This document shows, in pieces, positions 3,547 to 55,770 of a stretch of 64,000 nt of DNA. How positions within the stretch are numbered: position 1 is the stretch's first letter; each line of letters starts with the position of its first letter. Origin of the DNA: Eledone cirrhosa (Eukaryota); NCBI GenBank assembly GCA_964016885.1, contig OZ024743.1, forward strand, positions 302,560,001 through 302,624,000. The letters are read 5' to 3'. The translations under genes and the position numbers were made by a program. The notes below the pieces were generated by a model that saw nothing but the letters and a program-made list of their open reading frames with translations, was not told where the DNA came from and searched no databases.

Positions 3547-5711
3547 TGTTTCTTTTATTTGCCACTAGGGCATCAAAAGTGGGACAAGTACAAAGGGGGG
3601 AGTTTACACAAAAAGGCGTCCTCAATAAGGAGGAGGCAATAACAAAATATAAAAATAAAATAAGATATAACAAAAAATAAAATTTATAACAAAATCCTCA
3701 ATAGAGAGGAGGCGCCTTGGGGGGTCGCACACACACCCGAAAAAAGTGTGCAACCCTTTTCCTCAGGAGCACAGAGAGGGGGTGCTCCCTCGTTCCTTCC
3801 TCTTTTCCACCTACAGGCTTATGTAAAGAGAAGGCCCATTCACACGGGCCATTCTTGCCACTTTCACCCACCTTTCATAAAAACGACTGAGGTGCAGCAC
3901 CTCTCTCTCCATCATGATCCTTCTTCCGAAATGATATCGGAAGAAACGGACCAGTTGTTGGCCAGAGAGAAAGGTGCCTGACCTCAGTCCTTTCAGACGC
4001 GTCCACCATACAACCTCTTTCGCCATGGCTATTACGCACAGAAACACCGCCTCTGCTTCATCTTTGAAGGGGGGAGGCGGCTTGATCATTACAATAGACT
4101 CGGTGGTCAACCGGATCGGTCCCACCCTTGACAGCAGTTGTTCGACATAGCCCCACAGATCGGCTACGCCCGAGCAGTGTACCAATGCGTGTGCAACGGT
4201 TTCCTCGTCGCACACGCATCTGGGACAGATCTTTTTGGCGGGGTCCCTACCCGGGCGCCCGTGTCTGTAGAGCCTTTCTCGAACGGGTAAAGCCCGTCGG
4301 TAGCACTGCCAGGCCAGGGACTTCTGGAAGTTGTCCATAGGTCCCGGGCTGAATGTCCTACCGAACAGGCTGGCCAGTTCGTCCTCCTCCATGTCTAGGG
4401 CTTCTCCGAGGGCGTCGTCGCACTTGCTGCGTACCAGCCCTCTATAGAATGTTGCGGTGGAGTCTCCACTGATAACCGGATCCGCCTGCCAGAGGGCGGT
4501 GGGCGCCTGGGCACACTCAGTGTGCCAGGCGCCCAGTTTTCTCGGTCTTTGCTTGACCCAGGATTGCAGCTCGGTGAGTGAGACGAGTCTGGGAAAGGTT
4601 CGTCTCACAAACGAGACCCACACCGGTTGTCCGGTGAGGAATACGTAGAGGTGCCGTAGCCTTAATGCGTGTTTACGCATCATTAGCCACGGCATCCCCA
4701 GCCCTCCTTTCGAAGGGTGTTGACAGCAGATTGATCTCGTCACCATAGGAGCCCGCCTCTTCCAAAGGAATTGGAAGAGCGCGCGCTCCATCTTGGTGAG
4801 GGTTTCCCTTGGGCAGGGCACTACGGTCAGGCGGTAGTAGATGACGGACGCTATATAAGTGTTTGCCACCTCCGCCTGACCTTTCAGGGATAGTTTGCAA
4901 CTGGCCCACTTCTGGGTCAGTGCAAACACTCTGTTCGTAACCTCCGCCCAGTTTTTCTCCACCTGGAGGTCCGGTCCGAACCAGACCCCGAGCAACTTCA
5001 CCGGGCCCTCCGTCCAGCGTCCGACGACGCCATCGGAGGGCATCGGTCTGCCCCTCCACGTGCCGAGTTACAAACCGATCGACTTGTCCCGGTTCAGCTT
5101 AGCCCCTGTGAACTTTTCGTACTCCTCCAGTAAGGTGCCGACCGCCTCGATTTCGGAGGCCGTCGACACCATTACTGTCACATCATCGGCGTAGGCTGAC
5201 ACCGCTTTCCGCAATCCCGGTTCCAAAGGGATGCCCTGCAACAACTCCAACTTCCGCAGTAGTGGCTCGAGAGTCAACACATACAGAAGGGAGGAGAGAG
5301 GGCACCCTTGTCGGATGGACCGCGCGATTTTGAACGGCTCCGAGAGGTAGCCGTTCACCTTGACCCTAGAGCAGATGCGGCTGCTGTGCATAGCAGTGAT
5401 CCAGCCCCTGAAAACGGGTCCGAAGCCTGCCGCCGCTAGCACCGCATCCAGGTAACCATGGTCGACCCTATCGAACGCCTTAGATTGATCCAAGTTGATC
5501 AGAGCCCCACCAAAGCCGGGTTCGTTCCCAACCCTCTCTATGATGTATCGCATGAGGTGGAGGTTGTCATGGATGGACCTGGACGGGATAGCGCATGTCT
5601 GCGCATCTCCCACCAGGTTGCCCACGACAAGCGCCAACCTCTTTGCTAGCACCTTGGCCAAAATCTGTAACTCTGTATTTAGCAGAGTTATGGGCCTGAA
5701 GTTACTTATTT

Positions 5712-5712
<1 letters not shown>
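3547..5712 (-). mobile_element. Tx1/L1-clade non-LTR retrotransposon, 5'-truncated, flanked by (GATA)n on both sides
   Basis: RT motifs NFRPITLLN, LDQSKAFDRV, RQGCPLS, SAYADDV (5068..5710). C-terminal zf-RVT-type CPRC..EETVAHALVHC (3811..5043). The 3' UTR ends AATAAAAGAAAC then (TATC)n. Confidence 0.92.
3811..5709 (-). pseudogene. Tx1-like ORF2 remnant (RT and C-terminal Zn finger), frameshift near 5050-5070
   Basis: ORFs 5068..5760 (first ~16 aa are microsatellite) and 3811..5043 are homologous to 43693-45432. Confidence 0.85.
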
Positions 5713-5757
<45 letters not shown>

Positions 5758-6308
5758 CATTTATATTCAAAACAATAGCAACAATAGTTCAAATATTGTA
5801 AAACATAAAATGACACGATACAAATACATGTTTAATATGTAGTTTAAGAATATTTAATATAAATTTATATATAGTTTATCTATAGTTAATATATAGTTTA
5901 AGAATATTAATTTGCGTTTACATTATTCAACTGTATTTCTCACGACAAATAAATATTTTCAAACAATTAATTTCTCACGACAAATAAATATTTTCAAACA
6001 ATTAATTTCTCCCTCTATTGTATGAACTATTTCAGGCCATACTCTGCGTAAATAACGAGGTAGTATAGAGTTTGGAACAATACACAGAAAAACTGCAGTG
6101 TCACATTTAATACGATAATTGGGAAATTACTCGAATATTCCAACTTACTTTGTTAAACATATGAGGCCTAGCGTATTTGTGTGCAGTATGACTACTTCTC
6201 GTTAGCAATGCTGTTGATATTCAAAATCAGTGTTACACATGCACACATAAACTGATACACACTCACAGATGCGAACACACGTGCATACAGCGGTGTATAT
6301 ACACACGC

Positions 6309-6549: not shown

Positions 6550-6590
6550 TGTATATATATATATATATATATGTAAACCTTTATATATAT
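6311..6590. repeat. (TA)n tract with alternating inverted motif tgtaaacctttata / tataaaggtttaca
   Basis: Direct reading of the sequence. Confidence 0.85.
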
Positions 6591-6897
6591 AAATTGAAAC
6601 AAAATGAAAACGAAATTTCATTTCTCACTCTTAGTATGGCACTTACTTAAATGTAAGTATGCATGTATACGTACATACATATATGTATACAGACGTACAG
6701 TAGCATGCACATATATATATATATATACATATATACATACATATGCATACAGGTACACATACATATATGCACGTATCAGTTTAGCGGCGCTTATTATAAC
6801 GTCGCTTTGTTCGTTTGTAAACAAACTGAACAGCCTGAATTTATGCCATACGGTGTTAAGGCAACCACGTCACCTTTTTGTTCAACACTGACACAGG

Positions 6898-6942
6898 AAC
6901 GATGTACTAGTTTCAAGCTTGTTAGCTATCATCAGCACCGTT
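6898..6942 (-). ncRNA. Type I hammerhead ribozyme (array 1, unit 1)
   Basis: AACGGUG-CUGAUGA-U-AGCU(AACA)AGCU-U-GAAA-CUAG-UA-CAUCGUU: 7-bp helix I, canonical core, palindromic helix III ACUAGU, GUA site. Confidence 0.88.
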
Positions 6943-7176
6943 TACCCATCTGCCAGATAGTTGAACGTTCGAAAGTATATACTTTCCTTATGAAATTAAC
7001 GGCTGAGCAGCCTAATTTGAATATTGAGTGAGTTAAATCGGTCAGGCATACCGAAAACGATAAATTGAAACAAAATGAAAACGAAATTTCATTTCTCACT
7101 CTTAGTATGGCACTTACTTAAATGTAAGTATGCATGTATACGTACATACATATATGTATACAGACGTACAGTAGCA

Positions 7177-7260
<84 letters not shown>

Positions 7261-7422
7261 CATACATATGCATACAGGTACACATACATATATGCACGTA
7301 TCAGTTTAGCGGCGCTTATTATAACGTCGCTTTGTTCGTTTGTAAACAAACAGAACAGCCTGAATTTATGCCATACGGTGTTAAGGCAACCACGTCACCT
7401 TTTTGTTCAACACTGACACAGG

Positions 7423-7467
7423 AACGATGTACTAGTTTCAAGCTTGTTAGCTATCATCAGCACCGTT
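7423..7467 (-). ncRNA. Type I hammerhead ribozyme (array 1, unit 2)
   Basis: Identical to 6898-6942. Confidence 0.88.
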
Positions 7468-7895
7468 TACCCATCTGCCAGATAGTTGAACGTTCGAAAG
7501 TATATACTTTCCTTATGAAAATTAACGGCTGAGCAGCCTAATTTGCATATTGAGTGAGTTAAATCGGTCAGGCATACCGAATACGATAAATTGAAACAAA
7601 ATGAAAACGAAATTTCATTTCTCACTCTTAGTATGGCACTTACTTAAATGTAAGTATGCATGTATACGTACATACATATATGTATACAGACGTACAGTAG
7701 CATGCACATATATATATATATATATACATATATACATACATATGCATACAGGTACACATACATATATGCACGTATCAGTTTAGCGCGCTTATTATAACGT
7801 CGCTTTGTTCGTTGGTAAACAAACTGAACAGCCTGAATTTATGCCATACGGTGTTAAGGCAACCACGTCACCTTTTTGTTCAACACTGACACAGG

Positions 7896-7940
7896 AACGA
7901 TGTACTAGTTTCAAGCTTGTTAGCTATCATCAGCACCGTT
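7896..7940 (-). ncRNA. Type I hammerhead ribozyme (array 1, unit 3)
   Basis: Identical to 6898-6942. Confidence 0.88.
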
Positions 7941-8337
7941 TACCCATCCGCCAGATAGTTGAACGTTCGAAAGTATATACTTTCCTTATGAAAATTAACG
8001 GCTGAGCAGCCTAATTTGCATATTGAGTGAGTTAAATCGGTCAGGCATACCGAAAACGATAAATTGAAACAAAATGAAAACGAAATTTCATTTCTCACTC
8101 TTAGTATGGCACTTACTTAAATGTAAGTATGCATGTATACGTACATTCATATATGTATACAGACGTACAGTACGATGCACATATATATATATATATATAT
8201 ACATATATACATACATATGCATACAGGTACACATACATATATGCACGTATCAGTTTAGCGGCGCTTATTATAACGTCGCTTTGTTCGTTTGTAAACAAAC
8301 TGAACAGCCTGAGTTTCAACTATCTGGCAGATGGGTA

Positions 8338-8382
8338 AACGGTGGTGATGATAGCTAACAAGCTTGAAACTAGTACATCGTT
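8338..8382 (+). ncRNA. Hammerhead copy in the inverted unit, C3G core mutation (probably inactive)
   Basis: aacggtg-GTGATGA-tagctaacaagctt-gaaa-ctag-ta-catcgtt. Confidence 0.7.
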
Positions 8383-8751
8383 CCTGTGTCAGTGTTGAAC
8401 AAAAAGGTAACGTGGTTGCCTTAACACCGCATGGCATAAATTCAGGCTGTTCAGTTTGTTTACAAACGAACAAAGCGACGTTATAATAAGCGCCGCTAAA
8501 CTGATACGTGCATATATGTATGTGTACCTGTATGCATATGTATGTATATATGTATATATATATATATATGTGCATGCTACTGTACGTCTGTATACATATA
8601 TGTATGTACGTATACATGCATACTTACATTTATATATATATATATATATCATAAAACATGTCTATAGAATAACCAGATAACATATATACCGTTTCCTCTC
8701 CCAATTAGCATAATTAACCATATAAAATATATATATATATTTTTTTTTTTT

Positions 8752-9270
8752 CGCGTATGCTTGTGTATGTACGTATATGGATGCGTGTATGTATTTATTT
8801 AATTTCTATTACCTCTGTATTTTATTTACTTTATTATTAACTCTTAAGCCGAGAATCATTCGGTCTCCTAGTTAGAATTTTAGTCTACGACTTCAGTTAT
8901 ACCATTTACGTGGTTTTGTCTTTGCGTGCAATTGTTCTCCTCGTACCACATATCTTCGTTGTTTCGGTTCATTGCCAGAAAACGTCTCTATGAACCACTT
9001 AATAGAATGTTAGTCTACGACTTCTTTTATACCGTAAACGTGGTTTTGACTTTGCGTGTAATTGTCTTTCACCGCTCCAAATAATTATATTCGTTTTTTC
9101 CCGTTCATTGCTAGGGAACGTTTCCTCGAACCAAAGTATCGTCTTCCTGTCTTCCTCAGGTAGCAACGTTTTTTGAAATATTTACTTCTGCGTTCACAGA
9201 TTGACTTTGTTAGTTTCAGAAGATCCCGTTAATGGGGAAAATATCGATCTTTGCTTAAACTTTAATCTGT

Positions 9271-9272
<2 letters not shown>
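8752..9272 (+). mobile_element. Non-coding 3' end (pLTR/UTR) of the PLE family found at 61981-64000
   Basis: Aligns by eye with 63500-64000 (tttacctctgtat, agaattttag.ct, tatcgtcttcctgtcttcctc, ttagtttcagaagatccc). Followed by (TA)n. Confidence 0.8.
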
Positions 9273-9307
<35 letters not shown>

Positions 9308-9491
9308 TAAAAGAAAAGAAAATGCTGACAAATTGTTCCCAGTGAAAAATAGTTTAATTAGGAATAAGTAAAAATTAGTAATAAGTATTGGTTAGTATTT
9401 ACTTTTGGTTTTAAATTCTTACCGGTTGCGCATTTCTAATGCTTTTCCAAAATAGTTTTGAGATAGAGCGCCCGGGATGTTTGCTCTAATG

Positions 9492-9548
<57 letters not shown>

Positions 9549-9707
9549 GTTGAAAAGTTAACACACTATAGAGCGATAGTGTGCCAACAGTAAAAGAGGA
9601 AAAACCACCAGTGTATGGAATCTATAATCTATGGAAGGCAGGGTAGACAAACAATAATTAAAAATAGGAATTAAAATATATATACGCCCCTCTATAACTA
9701 TATAACA

Positions 9708-9788
9708 CACGCGTACAAATCCAAAGAGGTCTATTTCGCCAGGAAGTTGTTGACTGAAATTGAATAGCCTATGGTTCATCAGCGCGTG
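9708..9788 (-). ncRNA. Type I hammerhead ribozyme (array 2, unit 1)
   Basis: CACGCG-CUGAUGA-ACCA...UGGC-GAAA-UAGA..UUUG-UA-CGCGUG: perfect 6-bp helix I, canonical core, extended helices II and III. Confidence 0.82.
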
Positions 9789-10245
9789 CAACACTTTACA
9801 TTCCAGACAACTCTAAGAGAATCTAAAGCGACCGTCCTGCTACACGCGGCTGAGAGAGATCACAGCGTGTTTATGGCAGTGAACCTGTGGTATCTGAGGG
9901 ACGACCTGCTAGAAAGGGCTGCCCCAAAACCACTCAGGAAGTGTGCTCAACCAAACAGAGATAGAGGAAAGACTGTTATATGGAGCGAAATATCACGATA
10001 AATTAACAGAGCCATAGACTCTCGTTATTCTCTGTCAATAATGTGCTCAAAGGTAAAGGAATCCTGATTTATTTAAAATACAATATGTTGAAAAGGTAAC
10101 ACACTATAGAGAGATAGTGTGCCATCAGTAAAACAGGGAAAACCACCAGTGTATGGAATCTGTAATCTATGGAAGGCATGGTAGACACACAATAATTAAA
10201 AATAGAAATTAAAATGTATATACGTACCTCTATAACTATATAACA

Positions 10246-10326
10246 CACGCGTACAAATCCAAAGAGGTCTGTTTCGCCAGTAAGTTGTTGACTGAAATGG
10301 AATAGCCTATGGTTCATCAGCTCGTG
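10246..10326 (-). ncRNA. Type I hammerhead ribozyme (array 2, unit 2)
   Basis: CACGAG-CUGAUGA-ACCA...UGGC-GAAA-CAGA..UUUG-UA-CGCGUG, with one helix I mismatch. Confidence 0.75.
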
Positions 10327-12199
10327 CAAGACTATACATTCCAGACAACTCTAAGAGAGACTAAGGCGACCCAATATTATTCCCTGTTAATAATGTGCTC
10401 AAAGGAAAGGGAATCCTGAGCTTATCTTTAAAATACAATATGTTGAAAAGGTAACACACTATAGAGAGATAGTGTGCCATCAAAAAACAGGGAAAATAAA
10501 CCAGTGTATGGAATCTATAATCTATCACTGTATTGTGTGTTACATTTTCAACATATTGTATTTTAAAGAGCTCAGGATTCCTTTTCTTTTGAACACATTA
10601 TAGACATGAATAACGAGAGTCTATGGCTCCGTCAATTTATCGTGATATACATATGCCCAGGAAAACTCATTCCTTTAAGCTCATTTAATTACACGATTAT
10701 ACGCGAGTCCTTTGCTCCGTTATTTTACTTGATATTTGCTCCTTGCACTCTCTCTGCTGTTGAGCACCATAATTTGAATAGTATAGGCTGCCATATCTAG
10801 CAATTTGTTCTATTCTTGCCACCGGTTACTGCCTTGCGCACGCATATACATTATAACTACACGTGCGAGGTAGTTTACTTTAGTTCGCTCTAGTAGGGCA
10901 GACAATATCGGCCTTCCACATGTTGATGACACACAGGACCGAATTGGAACCAACTTAAATGGCGAAACATTCTCCTGGTGAGTTTGTACATGGGTGACCA
11001 AGGTATGAGTTTGGTGTGTCATTTTAATTTATACTTTTAATTTTAATGTTTTTCCTATGCCTCTATTAGCTTATATTCTCTTCACGCTGGTGGTTTGAAA
11101 TTCCTGTAAAGAAAAACACACTCTTCTGTGTCTTTCCCCTCTATATATTATATATATATAATAACATACTTGTAAGAAAGATAATTCTCATTTTGACATG
11201 TACTTTGCAAATTGGTGGAAGGATTTAATTATCAATACTTTTTTGATGATATATTCAGTATGTCAATAACCTTATAGTTGACACGTTATATAATGGTTGC
11301 ATGTGAAATAGGAGATACACACATTTCCAACAAATCTCTTCATGGCCAAAAGTAGTTTAAGCTCGTAAACAAAGGTAAAACAATTGACACATGTGTTGGA
11401 TTATATTGAGTGTAGAGCTGTGTCCCACATTAAAGTGCGTTTGATTGATCCGTTGTTTCTCCTATAAGATATGTACGGGTATTATATTGATTTTGATCAA
11501 CCGCTTTCCTATTTGTGAAGAAAGAGTGATTTTTCGTTTCGGACTATTTCCAAATGCTAGTTTTGATGACAATAAAACTGAGGTGTACCTTTCTGTTTAT
11601 TATATTTTAACACTTTGTTTCGTGCGCTTTTCCCAACACACATAGATCTTGAACAGTATCATCACTGAAAATAACGTTTACTTTTACAATAAAGGATATA
11701 TTTCTCATCCCGAGTAAAGTCTCTACGAAACGTTGTGTCGTGGATATGTAGTAATTGTTATTTGTTGGTGCCTCATTAGAGACAAGCGGCATACATTTCA
11801 ATTTGACGTTGGACCGTTAGCCTTAGGTCGTAGGTATTACATTAGGAGGCAAGGTGGCAGTTATCCAGGCTGGTTTGTGGCTACTAGATGCTAGCAAAAA
11901 TGTGGAAGATTCAGGGTCTTAGAAGGACGAGTGTTACAAATAACACTATTCAAACCATAAGTCGGACCATGACAGGTACTACCACCCAGGACAAAGTTAT
12001 GAATAATGGTAAGTAATCGGTAACACCATACTCCCCAGAACTAAAGAAATATCGAACTAAAGCCTCACCACCGGTTGCAGTTTAGTGACGTGCCGATGAC
12101 AGTGATGTCACCATCGCAGTTAGCTAGGTGTGGGCAGATGAACCCCGAGTTTAAACATAGTGTTAGTTAAGTGCACATTGCACTTCACGTAAAAAAATG

Positions 12200-19261: not shown

Positions 19262-21580
19262 TTAGGAATTTATAAATTTCCGGTTGTTTGATTGGTTCCA
19301 CAACCAGACGGTTGTTCATATGTTGTCAAAGTTATTTCGTCACACGTTATGTGACCTTTTCAGTGACTGGGGATTATCTTCTTTGTTTTTGTGCCTCTCC
19401 TTTGTTCTGTCCTATGCCATCTTGTTTTTGTGTGTGTTGTGTGCTTGGTTTGCACATGTGTTACATCCGAGTGTCCGTGTGTATTTATATTCGTTTATTT
19501 ATTTGTTTATTTACATGTTACTGGTTGGTTGTTTGTTCTATGTGTGTGTGTGTTTTCATTTCGTCCTTAATTGTAAGTTTTAATGTTGCTGTTCCATTCA
19601 TGTTTTCTATTTAATTTTGGTTGTAGTTCATTTACTTTTATTGCCTCTGTGATTTGTCTGAACATTGCGTCTTTTCTATGTGTAGATTCTATTTTTATTT
19701 CTATGTTCTCTAATTTACCCTTATGTTCTATTTTAGCATGTTGGTGGAGTACAGATGATTCTTTATTATCTTGAAGCTCTCGCCAGTGTTCATCTATCCG
19801 TTCCCCTATACTACGAGCTGATTCACCTATGTACACTATATTCTTATCTCTACATTGTCCTTCAGTACATCTTATGCTATATACTACATTTCTAGTTTTA
19901 CAGTTAATATGGGGGCTTAATTTGCAGATTATACATTTTTTATCTATACAGGGAGGTCTTTGAAAAGGGTATGTATTGTTAATAAGTGTTTTTATGGAGG
20001 TACCTGGTCTTTCTACTATCTTATTATTGAGTTTATGTTTATCTAGGGCCCTTCTAAATTTGTGAGCTAATTCACCTCTATGGGTTGTATCGATGAACGT
20101 TACACTCTGGTATTTATTGCTATCATACCATGAGTTTATTCTATTAACCTTATTCCTACTTCTTTCTATTCTATTCCAAAATGTGCTCCTATACAAGGGG
20201 AAGGTACCATTTGTATCATTATTTATCATTTTTTTCCCATTTGGTTCTGGCTCCTCTATATACTCTGAATTTATCTCTCTGATTGTAACCAGAGAACTGC
20301 ATACGGTGGAAGAAGTGCTGTATGTGTCTGTCTAGTTCTTTGGGGTTGCACATGCGGAACACGTTTCTCAGCACCCGTACCCAATCCGCAATCAGTATGT
20401 TGATTTTAGTATGGTCCGAAACAGCTGAGTTTCGGTGCATCAGATATTTGGAAGTCATGGGTTTGGTATAATGGGATTGGAGGATTTGTTTTTTGTTATT
20501 AATGGTATCTACCCAGAGCTCTGTGTCTAGTACAGGTAATCGATGGTTGGGGTGTTTACTTGGGTAGACTATAGTAACTCTAATACTCTGGTGGATGGAG
20601 TTAGCTATTTGCTGGATGCTTTCCATGTTTTCTCTAATTCCGGACTGTTCTCTAGTGGGGGTGTTTTTACTACGATGTTTATATCATCAATGTAGCGGGA
20701 GTACATTATCAGGGCTAAGAGGTTGCTGTCTTCTAATTGTTCTGTAAGTTTAAGTTTAAGTCCATTGTCCGACCATACCATGAATAGGTTAGCTATGTCA
20801 CCTGCAATGCTAACACCAATGGCTGCTCCCTCCTCTTGGGCATATGTTTTTCCATTAAATTTGAACATATGTTCCTGAAGGGTTAATTTTATACTGGCCC
20901 CCACCGCATGTGCAATCATTTTCTTTAGTTCATCGTGGTTTTAGGGGGTCCGTATGGCTCTGGTCCACCCGTTCCATCTATCTGTGTGGGTTTTCTTGGC
21001 CATTGAGGTAATGGTAGGTGGTTTGCCTCTTTCTGGTCTTGTAGGGCACAGGTTGCTAAGGTCATATGTATCTAAATAATCATTACTATGGGTAAGTTTA
21101 AATAGGAGTCCCAGCTCACTGGTATCAATCCCATGGAATTCAACATTGGTCTCACTGATCATTTCTACGCATTTCTCCACTGCAAAATCCACGTCAATTG
21201 CTGGACACAGGGACACAACAGCTATACTACCTATTATTCAGTCCTCCGTGCTATCACATATATCTGGGAACATTTCAATGATGGGGCTTATTATCAGGGA
21301 GAGGAAGTAGGAAAGTCTGTAATTACTAGCAATATTAGCTCCAGAGACGGGCCGTGTTGGTGGTCCTGTGACAGGGTCACTGCTCGTTTTATGGTCTTTT
21401 CGAAGCCCATAAAACGCTGGCACGTCATTGTTCCAGGCCCGGAAGTTGTTGGCAGTCCTTTCTTTGGCTGCATTATATTTGTCCACATCATAATATTTGC
21501 ATTGAGGGTTTTTTCCCTATACTCATGCTCCTGTGGTGTTACTTCTCTTGTGTTAGAGATGTGGGGTTGCATTGCCTGGA
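19262..21580 (-). mobile_element. Penelope-like retroelement (RT plus C-terminal GIY-YIG endonuclease), decayed
   Basis: FYGLRKDHK..PTRPV (21238..21486), YSRYIDD (20605..20919), LPVLDTELW..HYTKPM (20219..20626), CIDKKCIIC..NVVYSIRC..VYIGESARSIGERIDEH (19567..20229). Confidence 0.9.
19325..19367 (-). ncRNA. Degenerate hammerhead motif in the PLE 3' region
   Basis: GUCA-CUGAAAAG-GUCACA(UAACG)UGUGAC-GAAA-UAAC-UU-UGAC. Helices I and II are perfect, but the core deviates from CUGANGA. Confidence 0.5.
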
Positions 21581-21594
21581 TGTATATATATATA

Positions 21595-21775
21595 TAAATA
21601 AAAGGAATTCCAACTTTGTTTGATTTACTCGTTTAATTTACAATCCTTTAACATGTATAAGGGTATTAGAATGAAATAGAATGGTAGAATATTACATGTT
21701 AAGTGTTAATTGAAGAAATACCTTCATGCTTTCGCAATCTTCAGGTTGATATTCTGTGGTTACAGTCATGTTTGC
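21595..21775. repeat. Dispersed repeat homologous to the arm ends of the 56394-57360 fold-back
   Basis: aaaaggaattccaa..ttacaatccttta..ttaagtgttaattgaa..catgctttcgcaatctt is shared. Confidence 0.8.
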
Positions 21776-23422: not shown

Positions 23423-23470
<48 letters not shown>

Positions 23471-23477
<7 letters not shown>

Positions 23478-23610
23478 TAACAGATTAAAGTTTAAGAAAG
23501 GAATCGCTGCTTTCACCCTTAACGGGATCATCTGAAACCCCCGTTTCAGAAGATCCCGTTAAGGGTGAAAGCAGCGATTATTTGCTTAAACTTTAATCTG
23601 TTATTTTAAT
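23471..23610. repeat. Near-perfect hairpin made of two opposed PLE 3'-terminal fragments
   Basis: attaaaataacagattaaagtttaag...aacgggatcatctgaaac-cccc-gtttcagaagatcccgtt...cttaaactttaatctgttattttaat. The same sequence occurs at 9213-9272, 26207-26280 and 63985-64000. Confidence 0.9.
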
Positions 23611-23789
23611 AAATATTTGCTCCACGGTTCTCATATATTTGATATATTTTTATCCTTATCGAGCCCTCTTTGGATTTTAGTCTTCAAATTTATTATTATT
23701 ACTATATATATATAATTATAAGAAATAATAGGTCTATTTTTGTCTGTTATTTCCTCATATTTTGTAGATTGATATATATCTCTGATTAT

Positions 23790-26137: not shown

Positions 26138-26206
<69 letters not shown>

Positions 26207-26208
<2 letters not shown>

Positions 26209-26280
26209 TTAGTTTCAGAAGATCCGTTAAGGGTGAAAGCAGCGATTCTTTGCTTAAACTTTAATCTTTTATTTTAATAA
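26207..26280 (+). mobile_element. Isolated PLE 3'-terminal fragment between (TA)n tracts
   Basis: gtttcagaagatccgttaagggtgaaagcagcgattctttgcttaaactttaatc. Confidence 0.8.
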
Positions 26281-26288
26281 AGATATAT

Positions 26289-26336
<48 letters not shown>

Positions 26337-31156: not shown

Positions 31157-31657
31157 TTTTCAACAGACAAATCGAGTGCTAAGCCCTTATGTTTACCAAC
31201 AGTATGACATAGATCTGTCAACTTATCTCCCATTGTTTGTTGAAAAAAGAAGTATGTGACATAATCACTATTTTAAAATAATAGCACAAGGTCTTCAAAA
31301 TGCTTTTAATTAAGCATACAGTATATTGCCAAATATACTATATATAAACATTCATGTGTACATCGCTATGTAAGACCAGCAATTCTAATTTTCAATGTCT
31401 GCCGGACCAGCAATCGCTCTATATAATCAGTTCCTTATTATTACTGGAATTACTATAAAAATCCAACATTTATCATTTTCAACAGACAAATCGAGTGCTA
31501 AGCACTGATGATTACCAACAGTATGAAACAGAACTGTCAGCTTATCTCCATTTGTTGAAAAAAGAAGTAAGTGACATAGTCACTACTTTAAAAACGTTCT
31601 TCAAAACGCTTTTAATTAAGCATACAATTTATTGCCAAATATACTATATATACATTC

Positions 31658-40301: not shown

Positions 40302-42136
40302 ATGAACTCTCCCACACCTAACATCACTGACGCCACCACCACCACAACTGAAACTAAAATTAACAATAGCAAAAATAACGATAACAACAACAGCAACAAT
40401 GAAATTAAGAAAACTACCCTGAGTTTTGCCAGAGTAGCAAAAACGTGCGAAGCGATCCAGGTAACTCAGGAGGAATTAGAAGAAGCCAAAGGAATGGTAA
40501 AGAAAGATGGGTACAGGGTCAGCCCCCCCCCCCCCCCCCCCCCTCCACCCACCTAATAAAATGGAGCAACGTCGCCTATGCACCGTGTCCTATCGAACAA
40601 TTCACATAAAATCGCGCCGAGTGGAACGGGCATCCGAGTCCCAAATCCAAAAAGCTTTGGGACATGTGTGGGCAAAAAAAAATCCACATCAGACGTGGGC
40701 AGAAGTATGGACGTGTTCTTTGAAACAGCACAAGAGGCCAGAGAACACTCCATGGCCCCATTAAGAAGTGACGACTTCACACTCATCCCAAGATATTGTG
40801 ACCAGAGACTTGTGAAGGTCAGGGTGACCCACGTTCCAACGGCCATCGAAATTCCCTGGCTAATGGATGCCGTCCTCGCCGGCATCTAGGCCAACACCAA
40901 AATAATAGAAATAGCAAAAGAAAAGCAGGAGAACTGGTCCGGATCTTGGATGGAGCTCCTGATCGAAGCGGACCATAAAAGCATTGAGGAGATCCCAGAG
41001 GTAATAGACCTCACTCACGGCAGCCACCTCACCGTAATCGTGGAGGGCAGAATACCTAGGTGTGTCGTTTGTGGTGAAGAAACCCACCTAAGGGTTTTCT
41101 GCCCTCAGGCTAAAAGGTGGAGGCCACCTCTCTTACCCACCCCAGTGACTCAACCATCAACACCACCAGCAGCAGAAATGGCAGAAACAACAGGAGCGAC
41201 TGTAGCAGCAACAACCCCAGCAACAGTAGCAAAACCAACACCTCCACCACCCAACGCGTCAGAACTAGCACCAGCGCCTACACAATCCACCACGCCACAA
41301 CCAAAACCAACGCATGTGGAGGATTTTCCACTCCCCAGCTTATCGCAACTGGAGACAGATTGTGAAGACGAGGAGTGAGAAACGGTATCAGGAAAAAAGA
41401 AAAAAAGAAACCAAAAAAGAAAAAAGTCTCTTCCTTTCCCCTCCAAAAACAAAATACAGAGGGAAACAAATAAATTAACAACCAAAAAAGTTAGGACAGA
41501 TATGCCACCATCCACACCAGCTTCACGAACCCCATCACCACAAACACCAACACCATCACCATCATTAACCCCAACACCACCATTACCAACACCACAAAAG
41601 TCACCAAAAAGCGTAAAAGAAACAAACCCACAACAAACGCAAACAAAACAAAACAACCAAAATGATATAAACTACACAGCAGGCAGTATTGGTAGAGAGT
41701 CGGACGCCATGCTTTCCAGCATAGTTACGTCCCTTTACGATCTGAGTTCAAATCCCGCCGAGGTTGACTTTGCCTTTCATCCTTACGGGGTCGATAAAAT
41801 AAAGTACCAGTAATGAACTGAGTATTTGCTGGCCTTTTCCTAAAGTAGAAACAATTAAATTTGAACAACAAACAATTATTACACTACATGCAACACAACA
41901 CCAGCATCACAGAAAAAGACTACACAGCAACCCAAAAGTTCACACCACCTCCATACATACAAACCACTCGCATCACACAGAAAACGTACACTAAACTAAA
42001 ACAAAAATTCCACAAAGACATCGGAGAGTTCCGACAAACACTCTCCAGGAGGATTTATAAGGACATCCTTCCGGGGGAGGCCACAAGCAGTGAAAAGGAT
42101 GGACAAACCATCCTTCCTCTACGAGAAGTAAGGTAA
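40302..42136 (+). pseudogene. Tx1-like ORF1 (gag-like, CCHC knuckle, Pro/Thr-rich), disrupted
   Basis: Fragments 40302..40556, 40578..40889, 40950..41378, 41502.. and 41861..42136. Interrupted by a SINE. Confidence 0.65.
41680..41856 (+). mobile_element. tRNA-derived SINE nested in Tx1 ORF1
   Basis: ggcagtattggtagagagtcggacgccatgc..ctgagttcaaatcccgccgaggttgactttgcctttcatccttacggggtcgataaaataaagtaccag. Confidence 0.9.
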
Positions 42137-42170
42137 GTGTTCTTTCCCATCTTTTCCACTCCATTTCAAC

Positions 42171-45100
42171 ATGACCTCTCTCAGAATAGGCTGCATAAAT
42201 GCGCGTGGCTTGGGGTCGTCATGGAAGCAGGGCCACCTGCTCAACGATCTCAGGTCACTAAACATAGATGTAGTGGCTATCAGCGAGACCAGAATCTCCG
42301 AAGCACGGGCCTTCGCACCGATCTTCGGCGGCTACGATGTGTACGCATCTCCCAGCCGTCCGGTATCGGGGGGAGGAGTTGCTGTGCTTCTTCGGAGAGG
42401 TTTGGATCTCGCCATACGGGCCATCTTCCTGGACCCAGAAGGTAAGTTGGTGTTGCTAGACGTGACCAACGGAGACGGGCAAGCTTTCAGGCTAGTGGCC
42501 GTCTATGCCCCGACTGGAGTAGGGCGGCCTGATTTATTCCGGCGTCTGGAGACCTTCCTTGGAACCTCCCGCTCTTTAGTGTTAGTGGGCGACTGTGTGG
42601 GATTAGCGGTGGAGGAGGGTGCAAGAGCCTCACCAACCTGCTCAGGGATTTTGAACTGTCTGACAGGTACCGATTGGATTTCCCGAAGGTGCCAATGTGG
42701 ACTTGGATAAATCGCATAGGTTCATCCAGATCATATCTAGAGAGATTAGTTTGTAGAGAACTAGATAGGTCTAGCATAGGCTGTCCACAATTCAAGATAG
42801 TCAGCGACACGGACCACAAATTCGTGATCTGTGTGCTTGACTTAGATAGGCTTCATAGACGAGGACCCGGCTACTGGAAGCTAAACCCGTCCTTACCAGC
42901 GCGCAAGGCCTACAGAGACCGGATTAGCGAACTAGTTAAGCGGGCGTTGACGGGGGCCATCGTCAACAACAAGTGGTGGTTTTCTCTGAGAAGAGCAATT
43001 AGAATAGAGTCCATTAGGTTTAGTAAGGCTTTAGCAATAGAGAGAAATAGAGCAGAGGGAGAATTAGTTAGAAAATTAGACGAGGCGCTTATCAATGGCA
43101 TCGCGACCGACGTGCTTGCGGCGAAATTGGCCCTTGACTAATTCTTCAATGCACAGCACGAAGGCTGCGTTGTCAGAGCTAGGGTGCGTGCTCTCAGACA
43201 TGAGGGGACGAACGCCGTTCAATGGGCCCGAGCGGCGGAGGCGCGTTGTGGCAACAAATCCACGATCCGGTCTTTGGTGGACCACTACGGGCGGATGCTA
43301 CTCGATCCCGGTCAAATGTTGTTCCGGGGCAGCGGCGGGCCAGATCGAGGGATGGACTTTAGTGTCTACCTCGACGGACTGCCGCGGCTCTCGACCACTG
43401 AGGCGGAGTGTTGCGAAAAGCCGATAACAGCCGCTGAAGTTCGGGAGGCAATGACTAGCTGCACATGGGGTAAATCGCCTGGTTTGGATGGTCTGCCCTA
43501 TGAACGTTACGTACATATGCCAGAATTGTTCGGAGGCCTCTTAGCGGACATCTACTGCAACTGGCAACAGAACGGGAGAATTGCCTGCTCTGTGAGCCGA
43601 GGAGCTGTGACGCTGCTGAGAAAGGATCCGAAGAATGGGGAAACATAGATAATTTTAGGCCGATAACTCTGCTAAACACAGAGTTCAAGATTTTGGACAA
43701 GGTGCTAGCAAAGAGGTTGGCGCTTGTCGTTGGTGGTCTGGTGGGAGAGGCGGAGACATGCTCCATTACCGACAGATCCATCCAGGACAAGCTCCACCTC
43801 ATGCGATACATCGTAGAGAGGGTAGCTAGAGAACCTGGCACGGGTGGGTCCTTGATCAATTTAGATCATTCGAAAGCTTTCGATAGGGTCGACCATCGTT
43901 ACTTAGCGGCAGTCCTGAGGGCGGCTGGCTTTGGGCCCGTCTTCAGAGGCTGGATCGCTGCCATGCACAGCAACATCTCCTCGGTGGTGAGAGTGAACGG
44001 TCACCTTTCGGAACCGTTCAACATCATGCGCTCGGTCCGCCAAAGATGTCCCCTCTCGTCTCTCTTGTACGTATTGACTCTCGAACCATTACTGCACAAA
44101 CTGGATAGTTCAGGGGGGTCCCGCGCGAACTAGGATGCGGAAGATCCGTGTCAGCATATGCGGACGATGTCACCGTAGGGATGTCGAACGCCAAACACAT
44201 CGAGACGATCGGCACTATACTCAGAGAATACGAAGCGGTGACAGGAGCAATGATCAACCAGGAAAAGTCAGTGGGCCTGCAGCTCGGCACCTGGAGAGGC
44301 AGGTCCATGCCGTCCAACAGCGTCGTCGGACGCTAGACGGACGGAGCAGTTAAATTGCTCGGGGTCTGGTTCGGTCCGGATGTCCAGACGGACAACAACT
44401 GGGACGAAATGACGAGCAGGGTGGCTTCTCTCACCCAGAAATGGGCGAGAGGAAGCTATCCCTGAAAGGTGGAGCGGAGGTGGCTAACGCGTATATCGCG
44501 TCCGTCATCTACTACCGCCTGACCGTCGTACCTTGTCCTAAGCCCCGCCTGACTGCGCTGGAGCGTTTGCTCTTTAGCTTTTTGTGGAAGGGACGCGCTC
44601 CGATGGTCAGGCGGTCCATCTGCTGTCAACACCCGCTACGTGGAGGGCTGGGAATGCCGTGGCTGATGATGCGCAAACCCGCGCTCAGGCTACGACATCT
44701 CCACCTCTTCCTCGACGGTGATCAGGTGAGGTCTCCGTTTGCTAGACGTGTCTTTCCCCAGCTCGTCACCTTGACGGAACTGCAGTATGGGTCAAGCGAA
44801 GACCGAGAGGGAGCGCTTGGAGACTGGAATGTTTTCAGGCGCTCACAGCCCTCGACCAATCGGGCAATGTGATCGGTGGAAACTCCACCTTGGCGTTCTA
44901 TAGAGGATTAGTGGAGGGGAAGAGCGACGACGTACTTGGGGAAACTCTAGGCGTCGACGAAAATCAACTAGCCAATCTCTTCGGAAGAACTTTCGGGCCG
45001 GGGCCTATGGACAACTTCCAGAAATCTCTGGCCTGGCAGTGCTACCGAGGAGCTTTGCCAGTTCGGGATAAACTCTACAGGCATGGAGGTGCCGTCAGTC

Positions 45101-45521
45101 GGGCATGTTTGAGATGCGCGCAGGGTGACGAAACCGTCCTGCACGCACTCGTCCAGTGTCCGAGCATTGCTGACATGTGGGTTTATGTCGAACACCTGCT
45201 GTCGCGTGTAGGACGGATCTGGCTATCAGCTGAGTCCATCGTGAGGATTGCCCCGCCCTCTTCCTTTAGCCGGGAAAGGCAGGCTTTTTTTATCTGTCTG
45301 GTGGCCATGGCGAAAGAGATAGTATGGTTGACACGTTTGAAAGGGCTTAAGATGAGCACTTACCTCTTCGGTAATGCCCTGAATAACTTTTTCAAATTTC
45401 ATTTGAAAAGGAAAATCAGGGTAGAAAGGTAAGTGCTCTCTTCCCAGCATTTTGTTGAAAGATGGGTGTGAGAGGCAAGAATGGCCCGAGTGAATCGGCC
45501 TACTCTGAGTATTTGCCTGTA
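42171..45521 (+). pseudogene. Tx1-like ORF2 (APE endonuclease, RT, Zn finger), multiple frameshifts
   Basis: Collinear fragments 42171..42710, 42674..43141, 43184..43648, 43693..44133, 44148..44336, 44441..44872 and 44869..45432. Confidence 0.88.
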
Positions 45522-45790: not shown

Positions 45791-48700
45791 ACAATTGCAT
45801 TTATCTTGCTTTATGTTCATACGAGTTATCACCAAGTCACAACCAGTGACCTCAAGAGACAACAATGTCCGCCATGTTCAAGAAAGAACATACATACTCA
45901 CACATGCATCTTTAGAGTTTAGACTTGTGATGTACTTATATTGACAGAATCTTCCTTAGTATACAAAAGATAGTACTAATGGGCAGTTCCCATTAGTACT
46001 ATCTTTTGTATTTCTCCTATACGCGGGTTTCCTGGGATTTGCGATAAGTAATCATTAGACCCTTAGGTATCATTCCCAGAGCGCCTACAACCACTGGTAT
46101 TGTTTTAGTTCGCAATTTCCACATTTTTCCAATTTCTATCTCCAGGTCCTTATACTTGCTCAATTTTTCAAATGTTTTTATAGATACATTCTTGTCTATT
46201 GGAACAGACATATCAATTAGCAGGCATACCCTCTTTTTAAAGTCCTTCAATATTATATCAGGTCTATTTGCAACTATTTTTCGGTTTGTTTGGATGCTAA
46301 AGTTCCACAAGATTGAGATGTGATCTTTTTCATGTATGGGAGGTGGTTGATGCTCCCACCAATTCTTTTGATGGGGCAAGTCAAAATGCTTACACATTAT
46401 CCAATGTATGTATTGTGCAGCTCTGTCATGCCTGTTTAGGTATTCGGTTGGAGCTATAGAGCTGCACATTGAAATTATATGGTCAATGGTCTCTGGTTGT
46501 TTTTTGCATACATGGCATAATGGGCTGCATCCATTTTTTATTATGTTGGCTTGGTAATTTTTTGTTGGCAGACACTGATCTTGTGCTGATATAATCAGTC
46601 CTTCAGTCTCCGATTTCAGTCCAGAGGATGCCAAACACTGATGGGTTAAAGTTTTGGCAACATGATGTTGCAAATTCTGCTCGCTCTGGGTATTTTCCAT
46701 ACAGAGGCTTTTCTTGCCATTTCTTAGCCAGTTTCTGTAGCAGTTCTTGCTTTGCAGTTACTTTTACCTGCTTTGCTTTTTCTGTGTTTTCCATTTCAGC
46801 AGTAAATGGGACTTCTGAAATTTGTAGTCCATTACTGTATCTTTGTGCATCTTTTGTAATGGAATATGTTCTTTTGATGCTTTTGTGTTTCAAAACGAGT
46901 TTGATCATCCAATCATGTGATTCCCTTAGATATGTAGATAATCCAATTGTTACAATTTTCAACGCAATGTCTAACTGGATTAACCCACGTCCTCCTTCTT
47001 TCCTAGGGAGATATATTCTATCTATATCTGCCTTAGGGTGATGCATTATGTGCATGGTTAAGAATTTTCGAATTTTTGTATCGAGCCTACTGATCTCTGT
47101 GCTTGACCAGTTGATGACATTGTAACTGCAGGTTACTACTGGTATGGCAAGCGTGTTTATGGCATCGATCCTATTCCTTGCATTCAATTCCGTTCTTCAG
47201 ATTGCTCTTACTCTGCGGTTTCCTTCCTTATCCTTTCCCTCATTGTCGAGTGCTTGATTCCGTCTCCTTCACAAACACCTAGATATTTGTAAGTTTGTTC
47301 TTGATCAAGTTCTCTTATCACGTTCCTCCGATCAAGATTAATGTCTGAACTCCTCAGCAGCTTTCCTTTGGTGAACGTTGCTTTGGCTCATTTATCTAGT
47401 CCAAACTCCATTTTAATGTCATCACTGAACTGCTCCACGGTGGATAATAGCCCTTGCAATTGTTCATCATTTTTTGCAAATAGTTTCAGGTCATCCATGT
47501 AGAACAAGTGATTAATGGTTTTGTCATAGACTTTATATCCATGTTTTGTTTCATTGAGCATTTTACTTAATGGTATAAGTGCGATGCAGAATAAAAGCGG
47601 TGATAAAGAGTCACCCTGAACAATTCCACAATTAATATTAACTTCTCTACCTTCCAGTGATTTTGTTTCACTATTCAAAAGGAGTGTCGTTTTCTATGTC
47701 TTCATACTGAATGACAAAAACCTCCTGACAAAGGGAGATATTTTGAAAATCTCTAAACATTTTTCAATCCAACTGTGTGGCTAACTATCGAATGCTTTTT
47801 TATACTCTATCCAAGCAATTGATAGATGTTTGTGTCTATTATGACAATCTTCCAGTATCATTTTGTTAACCAAAAGCTGATCCTTACAGCCATATGAGCC
47901 TCGTTTACACCCTTTCTGCTCAATGGGAAATAGGTCATTTGTTATCAGGTGGTCATATGTGTATTCAGTTAGGACTGATGTTAACATTTTATACATTGTG
48001 GTCAAGCAAGTTATCGGTCTGTAATTTTTGGGATTGTTTGTCTAATCATTCTTCGGAAGCAGGAATGTAATGCCGTTAACTAGCCATGATGGTATCTTTT
48101 CTGGCTCCTTAACTATTTCATTGTAAAGTTGGGCTAACAGCTCATGAGACTCTGTGAAGGTATTTATCCAAAAGTTTTGTATTTTGTCTTTTCCTGGGGA
48201 TTTCCATTTGCTGATTTTTCTTAGAGCCAAGCGCAATTGTTCAACTGTTATATTTTCCCATATTTGTTCCTCAAGATGACCTGGGTCTTTCATTTGTTTG
48301 TCTATCCATGGGACATGTATGTTATGAACTTTTTCTTCCACCCAGATGTTTTCCCAGAATTCTTGCACTTCCTCCTTGGGTGGTATTGATTTAGCAGTTA
48401 TTGTTGACTTACCAATTCTTCTGTAGAAGTTTCTTTGGTTGTTTTTGAACATATTATTGTCCTTATAGAATCTAGATCGTTTTTCATAGCGCCTTATACG
48501 AGCAGCTTTGGCCGACACCTTCTGCTTGATTATTTCTATCAGCATGTCTATGTCACATGTTGATTTTATACTGTACTTTCTTTTCAATTTTCTAAGTTTA
48601 GTTTGTTTAACATGTTCACCTACTTTATAGTTTGTTAATATTTCTATGTCAGATCGGAGAAGGTTTATTTGGCGATTGATGTTCTCTTGCCAAGTAGATT

Positions 48701-49760
48701 TCTTGTGGGAATTCCTTTGTTTTTTCATCTTCACTCCACATAAGTGAGTGGTGACTTTAGCCGATGCATAATAGAGATGATTTAAATTAGTAATGTTTAG
48801 TTTGTTTGTGATGATAATGTTTTTGAGAATTATGTTAGTCTTGTGTATTATCTTCTGGTTCTGTTTGGAGTTCTGTATCTTAGGGAGGGTGTCTCGTTGC
48901 CCCATGTCAGATTCTTTCAATTTCAACCATTCGATCATAATTTCATCCTTCAAGTTGGCAAGTTCATTCTCATTCATTTCTTTATCATTTACGATCTCAT
49001 TATTTTCATTTGTAGTTTCATCTTGAGCATGCCCTCCCTCCACTTTTTCGATCCTTTCTTTAATTTGCTCTGTTGCCAGTGATTCCACCCCAACCCTGGG
49101 ATTCGAAGTGTTACAATTTACCTCGTTTTCACTGACACGTGTTTCATTTTCCCTTCGCTGACTTTGTGCTAATAGCTTGATCTGATCAATTTCTATATCA
49201 GTTAGTAACTTTTTTTTTACAATATTTCTTCATATATTGGCTAGTTTGTTACTGTCAATATAGCCTCTGTTTTCGGATGTTTCTTTTTCCAGTTGATATA
49301 TGTCTGTTCTGTATTCGATGTATTTGATGGGTAGTACATGGCAGTGTAGAAAGCCGCAAGGACTTCTTTATTATCTTCTCTTGACCATTTTTCTCTCTTT
49401 TTCTTTGGATTTCTTGGTGGTGAGCATGGAGGGCCAACAGTAGGAGTATTCCGGTTATGGGAGGTCTCCAGCTCCGAAGTGATGGGAAGGTTTGAACCAT
49501 TAGCTGATTTTTCGACCCCAGTCTGGTTCCTCTCTGAGGGACGCGGCCCCTTTTTACCCGGGTGACGGCCGATCCGGTATGAGATTTTATCATTAGACAT
49601 TTACTTTATTTTGTCGCGTTTTATACTTATCCGCCAAGGGGTAATCATTTCGTGTTACCACTTCTAGAACGAGTGTCAACCAAAACTAGAGGGGTCGTTC
49701 TCCCCTAGAGACACGGCTATTCCCCGCCGGCCGCCATGCCGGTATTTCTTGGTCACGGGG
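45791..49760 (-). mobile_element. Near full-length R4/Dong-like LINE, family 2 (RT, CCHC, RLE), decayed
   Basis: WKSPGKDKIQNFWI, EQKGCKRGSYGCKDQLL, GIVQGDSLSPLLF..INHLFYMDDLKL, CHVCKKQPETIDHIISMC, NRPDIILKD..LIDMSVP..KLSKYKDL. Degenerate (TAA)n tail at 45772-45791. Confidence 0.92.
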
Positions 49761-53800: not shown

Positions 53801-54477
53801 TGGCCGTCAGCATTCATCTCCTCAGTGGCCGTATCTCTGTTCCAGGTATTATTTATCTCAGTATTCAGATCATTGTCTGCTTCGGGTGGTTCCTCCGTTC
53901 TCAGGACCTCTTCACCTTCATTTCCCACTGGCTCGCTTGTCTGGCATACTACACCCGCCATCTCCAAGCCATTCTCTCTGCTCAGTTCCTCCAGTTCCAG
54001 CTCGCTTATCCATCCATTAGTTCTTATTACCCGAGCCTGCCCGGCCAATTTTTGTTCATCTAATTTAAATAAACCCATCTCGTTCCAGATGTTATGCATC
54101 CGTCTCCTGTAGCCCCTCTCCTTGGGGTTACTTTTCAGGTAACATTGCATAACAGTTCTATTCAATTCTTTCGTCCAGTTGGTTCTGGCCCCTTTCCTTC
54201 TTCTCCTTCCTCCAACATCAGCAGTATTTGGTTGACAGTCAGGTTCCTGCTGCTGAGCCAGGGGGCACCTGTTGGGTGAGAGTCTGTCACATGACGTTCT
54301 AGTCTCCATTTCACCGTTATTCGAACTGTTTATGTTCGATATTTAAACACTCTTATCGAGGATTGGCGAATGTATGGTTACATATCCATCTGTGGATCCG
54401 CCATTCCACTTGGCTCTTGTGTGGCACTATCACCACGCTGTATACGAACACACATAAACAAACAAACACACAGGCAG
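50830..54477 (-). mobile_element. Full-length R4/Dong-like LINE, family 1, flanked by (TAA)n on both sides
   Basis: A single ORF 54309->50916 is split by two frameshifts. Motifs NWKSPGPDGVQGYWIK, GIFQGDSLSPLLF, INHLLFMDDLKLF, CRICGEREETVAHIVSEC, RPGLVVVD..IVDVACP..RYQDL. Confidence 0.95.
50916..54309 (-). pseudogene. R4-clade RT/RLE polyprotein, frameshifted (53776..54309, 52094..53770, 50916..52097)
   Basis: Three long abutting ORFs. The RLE PD motif reads PG here but PD in the 39279-39776 copy. Confidence 0.9.
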
Positions 54478-55544: not shown

Positions 55545-55770
55545 TTCAAAAAACCTAGCATTTCGAGCAATTTTTTCCCATATAAAACAGAAGTAACATT
55601 CGAACACCAACCAGATGGGAGAAAACACTACAAACCCTCCATCTCAATTCTACTTTTGAAAAGCCCAAGAACTGCGAAACCGGTAAGGGAACCAAATAAA
55701 TATATATTTTTCTAAAAAAGACTGCAGTTGCATTTTCGATTTCATCTTTTTTCCCTATACTTTCACTCGT
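55545..55770 (+). repeat. Second copy of the 2365-2580 repeat, with an HHR-like motif at 55648-55691
   Basis: ttctactt-ttgaaaa-gccc-aagaa-ctgc-gaaa-ccgg-ta-agggaa, with helix II disrupted. Confidence 0.8.

Follow-up and report, generated by a model that had tools for sequence, protein, structure and literature searches.

At positions 9494-10648 of the window, the whole 64,000-nucleotide stretch of DNA analysed here, lies a repeat structure (array 2, Table 1) with two type I hammerhead ribozyme cores, CUGAUGA...GAAA...GUA, located on the minus strand at 9782-9714 and 10320-10252 and spaced by 538 bp. A strict hammerhead descriptor gave 2 matches in the 64-kb window, compared with a mean of 0.03 (maximum 1) in 60 Markov-resampled windows. 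The elements CUGANGA, GAAA and UH are exact and in type I order in both copies, A and B; none of the 21 differences between these copies falls inside the hammerhead core, and core positions are absent from the 40 displayed of the 129 positions at which family reads differ from copy A. The two motifs, which an earlier sequence-only reading of this DNA had noticed, are genuine and not the product of chance. Using Rfam, no hammerhead match to array 2 was found at the gathering score or at E<=10, and the microRNA matches obtained there were discarded as artefacts of the AT repeat or the inversion. The free minimum folding energies are -19.5 for hammerhead A and -14.4 for hammerhead B, and A and B follow one another in tandem, the type I hammerhead of each being complete and folding below -5 kcal/mol; at least two such units is the retrozyme threshold in the available text of bioRxiv 10.64898/2026.07.22.740005. 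A hammerhead-like string at 31505-31538 on the plus strand (CUGAUGA...GAAA...UC) with weak helices passed one loose scan and failed a stricter one, and is probably due to chance.

The strand of the hammerheads sets the RNA sense as minus, and thus the (TA)n tract stands at the 3' end of the element and the inversion at its 5' end. Both features had been recognised, as the start and the end of the array respectively, and only their order is reversed in the RNA sense. Array 2 is not a simple tandem and consists of one full unit, one deleted unit, one stub and one inverted piece; accordingly, the period of 538 bp described for it holds once, whereas the second unit measures 355 bp and the third is a stub of 89 bp. 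Copy A ends in ...CAACATATT on (TA)n, the "short" 3' terminus, 170 nt past the cut site. Copy B carries an internal deletion of 186 bp (equivalent to about 9834-10021) with a filler of some 5 nt. The inversion (10522-10648) is identical to the reverse complement of 9990-10117 at 113 of 127 aligned bases, overlaps stub C by the 4 bp CTAT, and stops at the "long" terminus (...CGTGATAT), which is followed by ACATAT. The longest stop-free frame in A and B is 93 aa and the GC content is 0.40. An ORF with RT and GIY-YIG is absent from the array 2 unit, which was not classed as an autonomous Penelope-like element (PLE). Just left of the TA tract a 50-bp repeat at 9419-9468 recurs with 80-82% identity at 2456-2505 and 55637-55687. 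A scan for bacterial promoters and terminators remained at chance level and is not relevant here.

Table 1. Features of array 2 and of the adjoining family member E3 (positions in the window).
Feature	Position	Strand	Remark
(TA)n target microsatellite, 3' end of element	9494..9544	.	
Copy A, full unit, 538 bp	9544..10081	-	
Hammerhead A, type I	9707..9789	-	core C3 at 9782, G12 at 9737
Predicted cut, hammerhead A	between 9714 and 9713	-	
Predicted cut-to-cut monomer RNA, 538 nt	9714..10251	-	would be the sole such product possible from the locus
92-nt "tail" separating the two 3' termini of the family	9990..10081	-	other genomic copies repeatedly end at 9990, the "long" terminus
Copy B, 355 bp	10082..10436	-	
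Hammerhead B, type I	10245..10327	-	core intact
Predicted cut, hammerhead B	between 10252 and 10251	-	
Copy C, 5'-truncated 89-bp stub	10437..10525	-	
Inverted 5'-truncated piece, 127 bp	10522..10648	+	corresponds to 10117->9990 of copy A
E3, diverged near-full-length member	10651..11149	+	directly abuts the inverted piece
Decayed hammerhead of E3	10917..10995	+	U at position 3 (10923), G12 at 10964, A17 at 10988
Imperfect TA run, 3' end of E3	11142..11160	.	

The earlier reading overlooked the 186-bp deletion of copy B and the third family member E3 on the plus strand. E3 is identical to A at 318 of 481 aligned bases (about 66%), with a local score of 212 against a background maximum of 70, and ends on its TA run at the short terminus, the same unit position as A. 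Compared with A and B, its hammerhead has undergone compensatory changes in both helix I and helix III. Searching with nhmmer and the family profile, no additional copy was detected in the window outside 9544-11153.

A second hammerhead-bearing structure, array 1 (6589-8632), has a unit of about 473 bp, an inversion at 8315-8632 ending on (TA)n and two 3' termini 59 nt apart. It resembles array 2 in the (TA)n at the 3' end, the tandem units, the 5' inversion ending on TA, the pair of termini and a mismatch at position 10.1-11.1 (here U·U); the core of its inverted copy reads GUGAUGA, and it reaches 18.5 bits on the Rfam model HH9. In contrast to array 2, it has a minimal helix III of 1 bp with a palindromic loop (dimer type) and a 59-nt tail, and is much younger: its units are identical at 296 of 299-300 bases (99%), which makes array 2 the older of the two. 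The sequences are unrelated, as had been stated, since the local scores of array 1 against the array 2 unit are 46 and 38, compared with a background maximum of 70 in 472 windows.

Public reads from 4 of 6 runs were compared with copy A at a match threshold of 80% or more; their source organism is possibly a close relative of the window's species (best word share 0.36). The unit was matched by 1593 and 1600 contigs (two runs, one sample) and by 2452 and 2101 RAD reads (two runs), the family reads being 80-99+% alike and covering all 30 bins of the unit. Matches of at least 80% over all 30 bins in about 1600 distinct contigs per run demonstrate a dispersed family of many copies, for which read depths yield no copy number, RAD reads sampling few loci. 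The joint 10081->9544 is supported by 116 and 35 reads with 14 and 7 starts, respectively, and the RAD reads ending at 10004 (262 and 232) all cross 9990. Together, the joint and the reads across 9990 indicate a unit that continues over both termini and forms a closed repeat with no ORF. Among 24 of the 487 loose-end rows, those just before 9990 show 27 and 34 contigs passing into TA repeat, at a position that coincides exactly with the end of the local inverted piece. These TA-flanked ends, taken with the local ones, define two 3' termini that are 92 nt apart and lie 170 and 262 nt past the cut. Five opposite-strand joints in the reads were not counted as firm (1-2 contigs or at most 16 reads, 80% likeness), and scans with the ribozyme pattern gave 0 matches in metagenome contigs and 0 in viral contigs.

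On this basis we consider it likely that array 2 is a decayed insertion of a non-autonomous PLE of the "non-LTR retrozyme" kind, whose unit, some 538 nt long and continuous as a circle, bears a type I hammerhead. Established within this explanation are the unit and its continuity in tandem, both 3' termini, the TA target and the lack of an ORF; the last of these would mark the element as a non-LTR retrozyme derived from PLEs. The proposal of an independent retrozyme family is borne out by a dispersed, many-copy, non-coding unit unrelated to array 1. It is improbable that, instead of forming a self-contained non-coding family, the pieces represent 5'-truncated pLTR ends stacked on each other and derived from an autonomous PLE with coding capacity. 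The layout and the position of the hammerhead are as in PLE pLTRs, most PLE insertions are 5'-truncated, PLE ORF wrecks occur nearby, and an ORF continuation could hide among the other 463 loose-end rows. However, the 538-nt unit closes on itself in other individuals, and E3 is collinear with it over nearly its whole length; the junction is thus fixed and not a random point of truncation. Furthermore, the unit has no ORF, and tblastn of the PLE fragments against the arrays gave no match below E 0.6.

Copies A and B differ at 21 of 290 bases across their shared stretch. Using 22 of the 24 difference rows displayed for this stretch (9658 and 9671 were omitted, being below 1% in contigs), all four runs agree on a majority letter at 19, of which B has that letter at 13 and shares the letter of A at 6. 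The differences fit a single source template, followed by a decay of a few per cent per copy; private changes number 13 in A and at most 8 in B (p 0.38), which fits circular and uncleaved multimeric templates alike. The local copies are decayed and do not constitute a young active locus, and they are unlikely to be of consequence to the host. The insertion of a single monomer, with the tandem, the deletion and the inversion produced by later local DNA events (slippage, unequal crossover or repair at the TA tract) and the hammerhead as a passive relic, is very improbable. Post-insertion local amplification has been proposed in the available part of bioRxiv 10.64898/2026.07.22.740005, A and B share 6 of 19 non-majority letters, and the deletion of B has no matching joint among the read joints listed and may be local. 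Nevertheless, the inversion ends exactly at a terminus of other genomic copies, which DNA repair would not choose, the tandem joint is present in other individuals, and array 1 displays the same layout of two termini and inversion in an unrelated sequence.

Thus, we favour insertion by a PLE protein acting in trans. RNA longer than the unit, either an uncleaved multimer or a circle formed by hammerhead cleavage and host ligation, would be bound by the RT/GIY-YIG protein of a PLE; from the starts observed here a cleaved linear monomer would yield at most 170-262 nt, and the template would therefore have been the uncleaved multimer or the circle. The protein would nick both strands of the AT-rich target and start cDNA synthesis at two internal sites that are separated by 92 nt and lie 170 and 262 nt past the cut. 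Priming at the short terminus on one target strand would give a cDNA of about 980 nt (A, B and C) and priming at the long terminus on the opposite strand a cDNA of 127 nt, and the joining of both at the 4-bp microhomology CTAT would generate tandem units with a 5' inversion. The insertion may have landed beside the older relative E3, although a template jump within a single event is an alternative origin of this adjacency, and A and B would have diverged afterwards by neutral mutation.

Several properties of PLEs, as given in the available text of the papers cited, agree with this mechanism. Their insertions typically form partial tandems, carry at the 5' end an inverted copy that is itself 5'-truncated, have a tail of 30-40 bp at one end and are biased towards microsatellites or (TA)n (PMC8557442; PMC8969392). 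A purified PLE protein acts on AT-rich DNA by nicking and extending both strands, and it begins reverse transcription at two internal sites bounding the tail, hammerhead cleavage being dispensable for insertion in vitro (PMC11167929). In array 2 we find the partial tandem, the 5' truncation and the adjacent 5' inverted copy (with the orientation set by the hammerhead strand), a tail at one end only (92 nt, the termini being at 9544 and at the equivalent of 9990) and a (TA)n target. The common mobilisation mechanism suggested for both arrays is thereby upheld, and it is not new, as the layout is the described PLE signature (PMC8557442) and animal retrozymes have been proposed to derive from PLEs as non-autonomous elements (bioRxiv 10.64898/2026.07.22.740005, in the parts available). 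An insertion beside E3 would fit the observation that PLEs often integrate within or next to older copies (PMC6765202, available text). Against the PLE model stand the tail of 92 nt versus the described 30-40 bp, a hammerhead fold that is not the minimum-energy one and the replacement of G10.1-C11.1 by A·C. A search for an autonomous partner in the window gave none, as its three PLE wrecks score 29-56 against A and E3, within background.

The window also contains large ORF fragments of LINE-type RTs, and twin priming, as known from L1, generates 5' inversions with microhomology. Mobilisation of the unit in a SINE-like manner by a LINE (of the Tx1, R4 or RTE type, abundant in the window) would account for the inversion in the same way, and LINEs or PLEs are named as possible helpers in the available text of PMC7229834. 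We regard such an origin as extremely improbable, because the unit lacks poly(A) or a simple-repeat tail of its own, the two fixed internal 3' termini and the more-than-unit tandems are PLE traits, and blastn gave no match of the unit to other window sequence, LINE ends included.

Returning to the proposed PLE-derived retrozyme, its ribozyme can be described helix by helix. Helix I of hammerhead A has 7 bp plus a distal stem, and the majority letter at 9796 restores one distal pair. The strand CACGCG attributed to both copies occurs in the first, whereas the second reads CACGAG, which creates an A·G mismatch at position 2 of helix I. In helix III of A two lesions (U·G and C·A) depart from the family majority, and at 9729 and 9733 the majority letters, which reach 97-100% in each of the four runs, produce Watson-Crick pairs at both, resulting in a helix III of 8 bp closed by a tetraloop. 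Helix covariation points the same way: between A/B and E3, 3 of 18 pairs, two of them in helix I and one in helix III, are changed on both sides, a count that comes from three related sequences only and was matched in 15 of 500 shuffles, while slid registers give 0-1. The repair of the lesions by majority letters and the covariation indicate that the long helix III, already suspected from the sequence, is a genuine and conserved feature. Helix II had also been considered extended but appears weak: A·C at 10.1-11.1 is followed by 3 bp, a bulge and at most 4 further bp, which enclose a loop of some 21 nt. An alternative hairpin surpasses it by 0.6-1.5 kcal/mol in A and B, and it is poorly kept in E3. 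Position 10.1-11.1 is A·C in A and B and C·C in E3, the usual G10.1-C11.1 pair being absent; A10.1 also stands in the consensus of 117 and 94 reads, and one other read consensus has U11.1.

About half of the family copies lack 2 nt at 9710-9711, in the 3' strand of helix I, and many show C>T at 9785 and 9789; these changes possibly mark a second subfamily with a shifted helix I register. Their interpretation as helix I covariation was rejected, as linkage is unprovable and the deletion alone folds about equally well.

According to ViennaRNA, which models neither tertiary contacts nor co-transcriptional folding, non-hammerhead folds are favoured by 7-15 kcal/mol in the local copies and by 2-10 kcal/mol with majority letters. 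The array 1 motif has a similar gap to its best fold (8.3 kcal/mol), and the 538-mer folded as a circle shows no unusual stability (z -1.6 versus 40 shuffles). Cleavage of the monomer by the family hammerhead is plausible: helix III would favour it, whereas A10.1·C11.1, the weak helix II and the competing folds argue for a slow or assisted reaction. The ancestral ribozyme with its 8-bp helix III probably cleaved, and the A·C mismatch closing helix II suggests that it did so slowly or with the help of protein. The available text of PMC4209133 describes G10.1-C11.1 as highly conserved among PLE hammerheads and reports that a large helix III enabled the Serpula ribozyme to cleave as a monomer; U·U is a tolerated natural mismatch at 10.1-11.1 (PMC3088659; PMC7229834, available parts). 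In the literature covered we found no description of an A·C variant at this position, and subscription papers, Lunse 2017 and preprint supplements may contain such cases. Of the retrozyme dimers tested in the accessible portion of bioRxiv 10.64898/2026.07.22.740005, 1 of 9 cleaved. We advance as rather doubtful a stronger proposal, in which the family would represent a distinct animal subtype (8-bp helix III, family-wide A10.1·C11.1 and long loop II) that cleaves as a monomer and whose 538-nt circle is copied by a PLE protein in rolling-circle fashion, with two-sided priming at sites 92 nt apart.

On the favoured reading, array 2 is a new family within a known class, the animal non-LTR retrozymes (Cervera and de la Pena 2020, PMC7229834; Li, Clavereau and Pollet 2026, bioRxiv 10.64898/2026.07.22.740005). 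As far as the available text of both describes them, these retrozymes likewise consist of short non-coding tandem units with a type I hammerhead each, have a GC content below 45% and many dispersed copies, and share their genomes with PLEs; it has been proposed that they derive from PLEs as non-autonomous elements, 51-972 bp in length (bioRxiv 10.64898/2026.07.22.740005). Judged by its sequence, the array 2 unit appears to have the features of this class, being non-coding, low in GC, a few hundred bp long, dispersed and multicopy. Its 538 nt exceed the 170-400 nt given in the accessible part of PMC7229834 and lie within the range of 51-972 bp. Helix III has 8 bp here versus 1-2 bp in the animal non-LTR retrozymes described there, and 10.1-11.1 is A·C versus G-C, with axolotl Amex2 having U·U.

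Comparison with PLEs was made with the EN+ clades Neptune, Poseidon and Naiad (Craig 2021, PMC8557442; Frangieh 2024, PMC11167929), as described in the portions available. Array 2 shares with them the partial tandems, the 5' truncation, the adjacent inverted 5'-truncated copy, the one-end tail, the AT-rich or (TA)n target and a hammerhead upstream of the 3' termini. Unlike them, it has no RT or GIY-YIG ORF in its unit, and its tail is 92 nt instead of 30-40 bp. Between its termini and the target there are 4-5 nt of AT microhomology; PAc, by contrast, starts in vitro at a non-homologous site (PMC11167929). The hammerheads of Serpula lacrymans and other fungal and protist PLEs (Cervera and de la Pena 2014, PMC4209133, available text) are also type I with a large helix III; compared by description and not by sequence, the present ribozyme differs in residing in an apparently animal genome, in a non-coding element, and in its weak, mismatched helix II. 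What is new is thus a matter of detail: the 8-bp helix III, known in fungal and protist PLEs and unusual for animals, the A·C at the base of helix II and the 92-nt tail. The literature covered, to which subscription papers and preprint supplements do not belong, contained no report of a cephalopod hammerhead or PLE.

As classified here, the present family adds one member to the animal retrozymes and displays a full PLE insertion signature (tail, inversion and TA target) on a non-coding retrozyme. It offers structural support for the link between retrozymes and PLEs, which in the available text of bioRxiv 10.64898/2026.07.22.740005 is argued from co-occurrence and pLTR homology, mostly in vertebrate genomes. 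Should the ribozyme with family-majority letters prove to be cleaved as a monomer in spite of the A·C, it would widen the hammerhead consensus and show that current Rfam models miss such motifs. If the reading as a distinct subtype were true, the family and the dimer-type array 1 some 1 kb away would provide a direct test of the role of cleavage and circles in PLE mobilisation.

The window as a whole consists of eukaryotic DNA, perhaps of an invertebrate animal, that is rich in repeats; (TA)n tracts are numerous in it, and its LINE and PLE reading frames are broken. A broken PLE ORF at 19300-21700 on the minus strand, between (TA)n tracts, has the RT motif YSRYIDD, a Cys-rich linker (CIDKKCIICK) and a GIY-YIG-like end; by its motif layout we take it to be Neptune-like, and hammerhead scans found none there. 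Two further broken PLE-type ORFs, at 61987-63000 on the plus strand (starting right after a (TA)n tract) and at about 100-1000 on the minus strand, contain an RT thumb and a GIY-YIG-like part, with a DKG motif region. The search for homologues of one PLE fragment gave 1 match among 157 candidates, Pfam matched 0 of 5 ORF fragments at E<=0.1, and the Atlas leads for window ORFs were GIY-YIG/HTH_animal (13-33% of members) and zf-RVT. Large frameshifted LINE ORFs lie at 3811-5760 (minus), 40890-45432 (plus), 46017-49229 (minus) and 50916-54342 (minus); they are of the AP-endonuclease/RT/zf-RVT type, the zf-RVT lead corresponding to 44749-45429, and presumably of RTE/R4-like types. A short repeat end abuts (TA)n in three or four places (9206-9304, 23445-23616 and 26205-26304), with a head-to-head pair near 23540. 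Finally, a repeat family at 8748-9227, between arrays 1 and 2, and at 63499-64000 shows 85% identity over 503 columns and an internal duplication of 130-136 bp.
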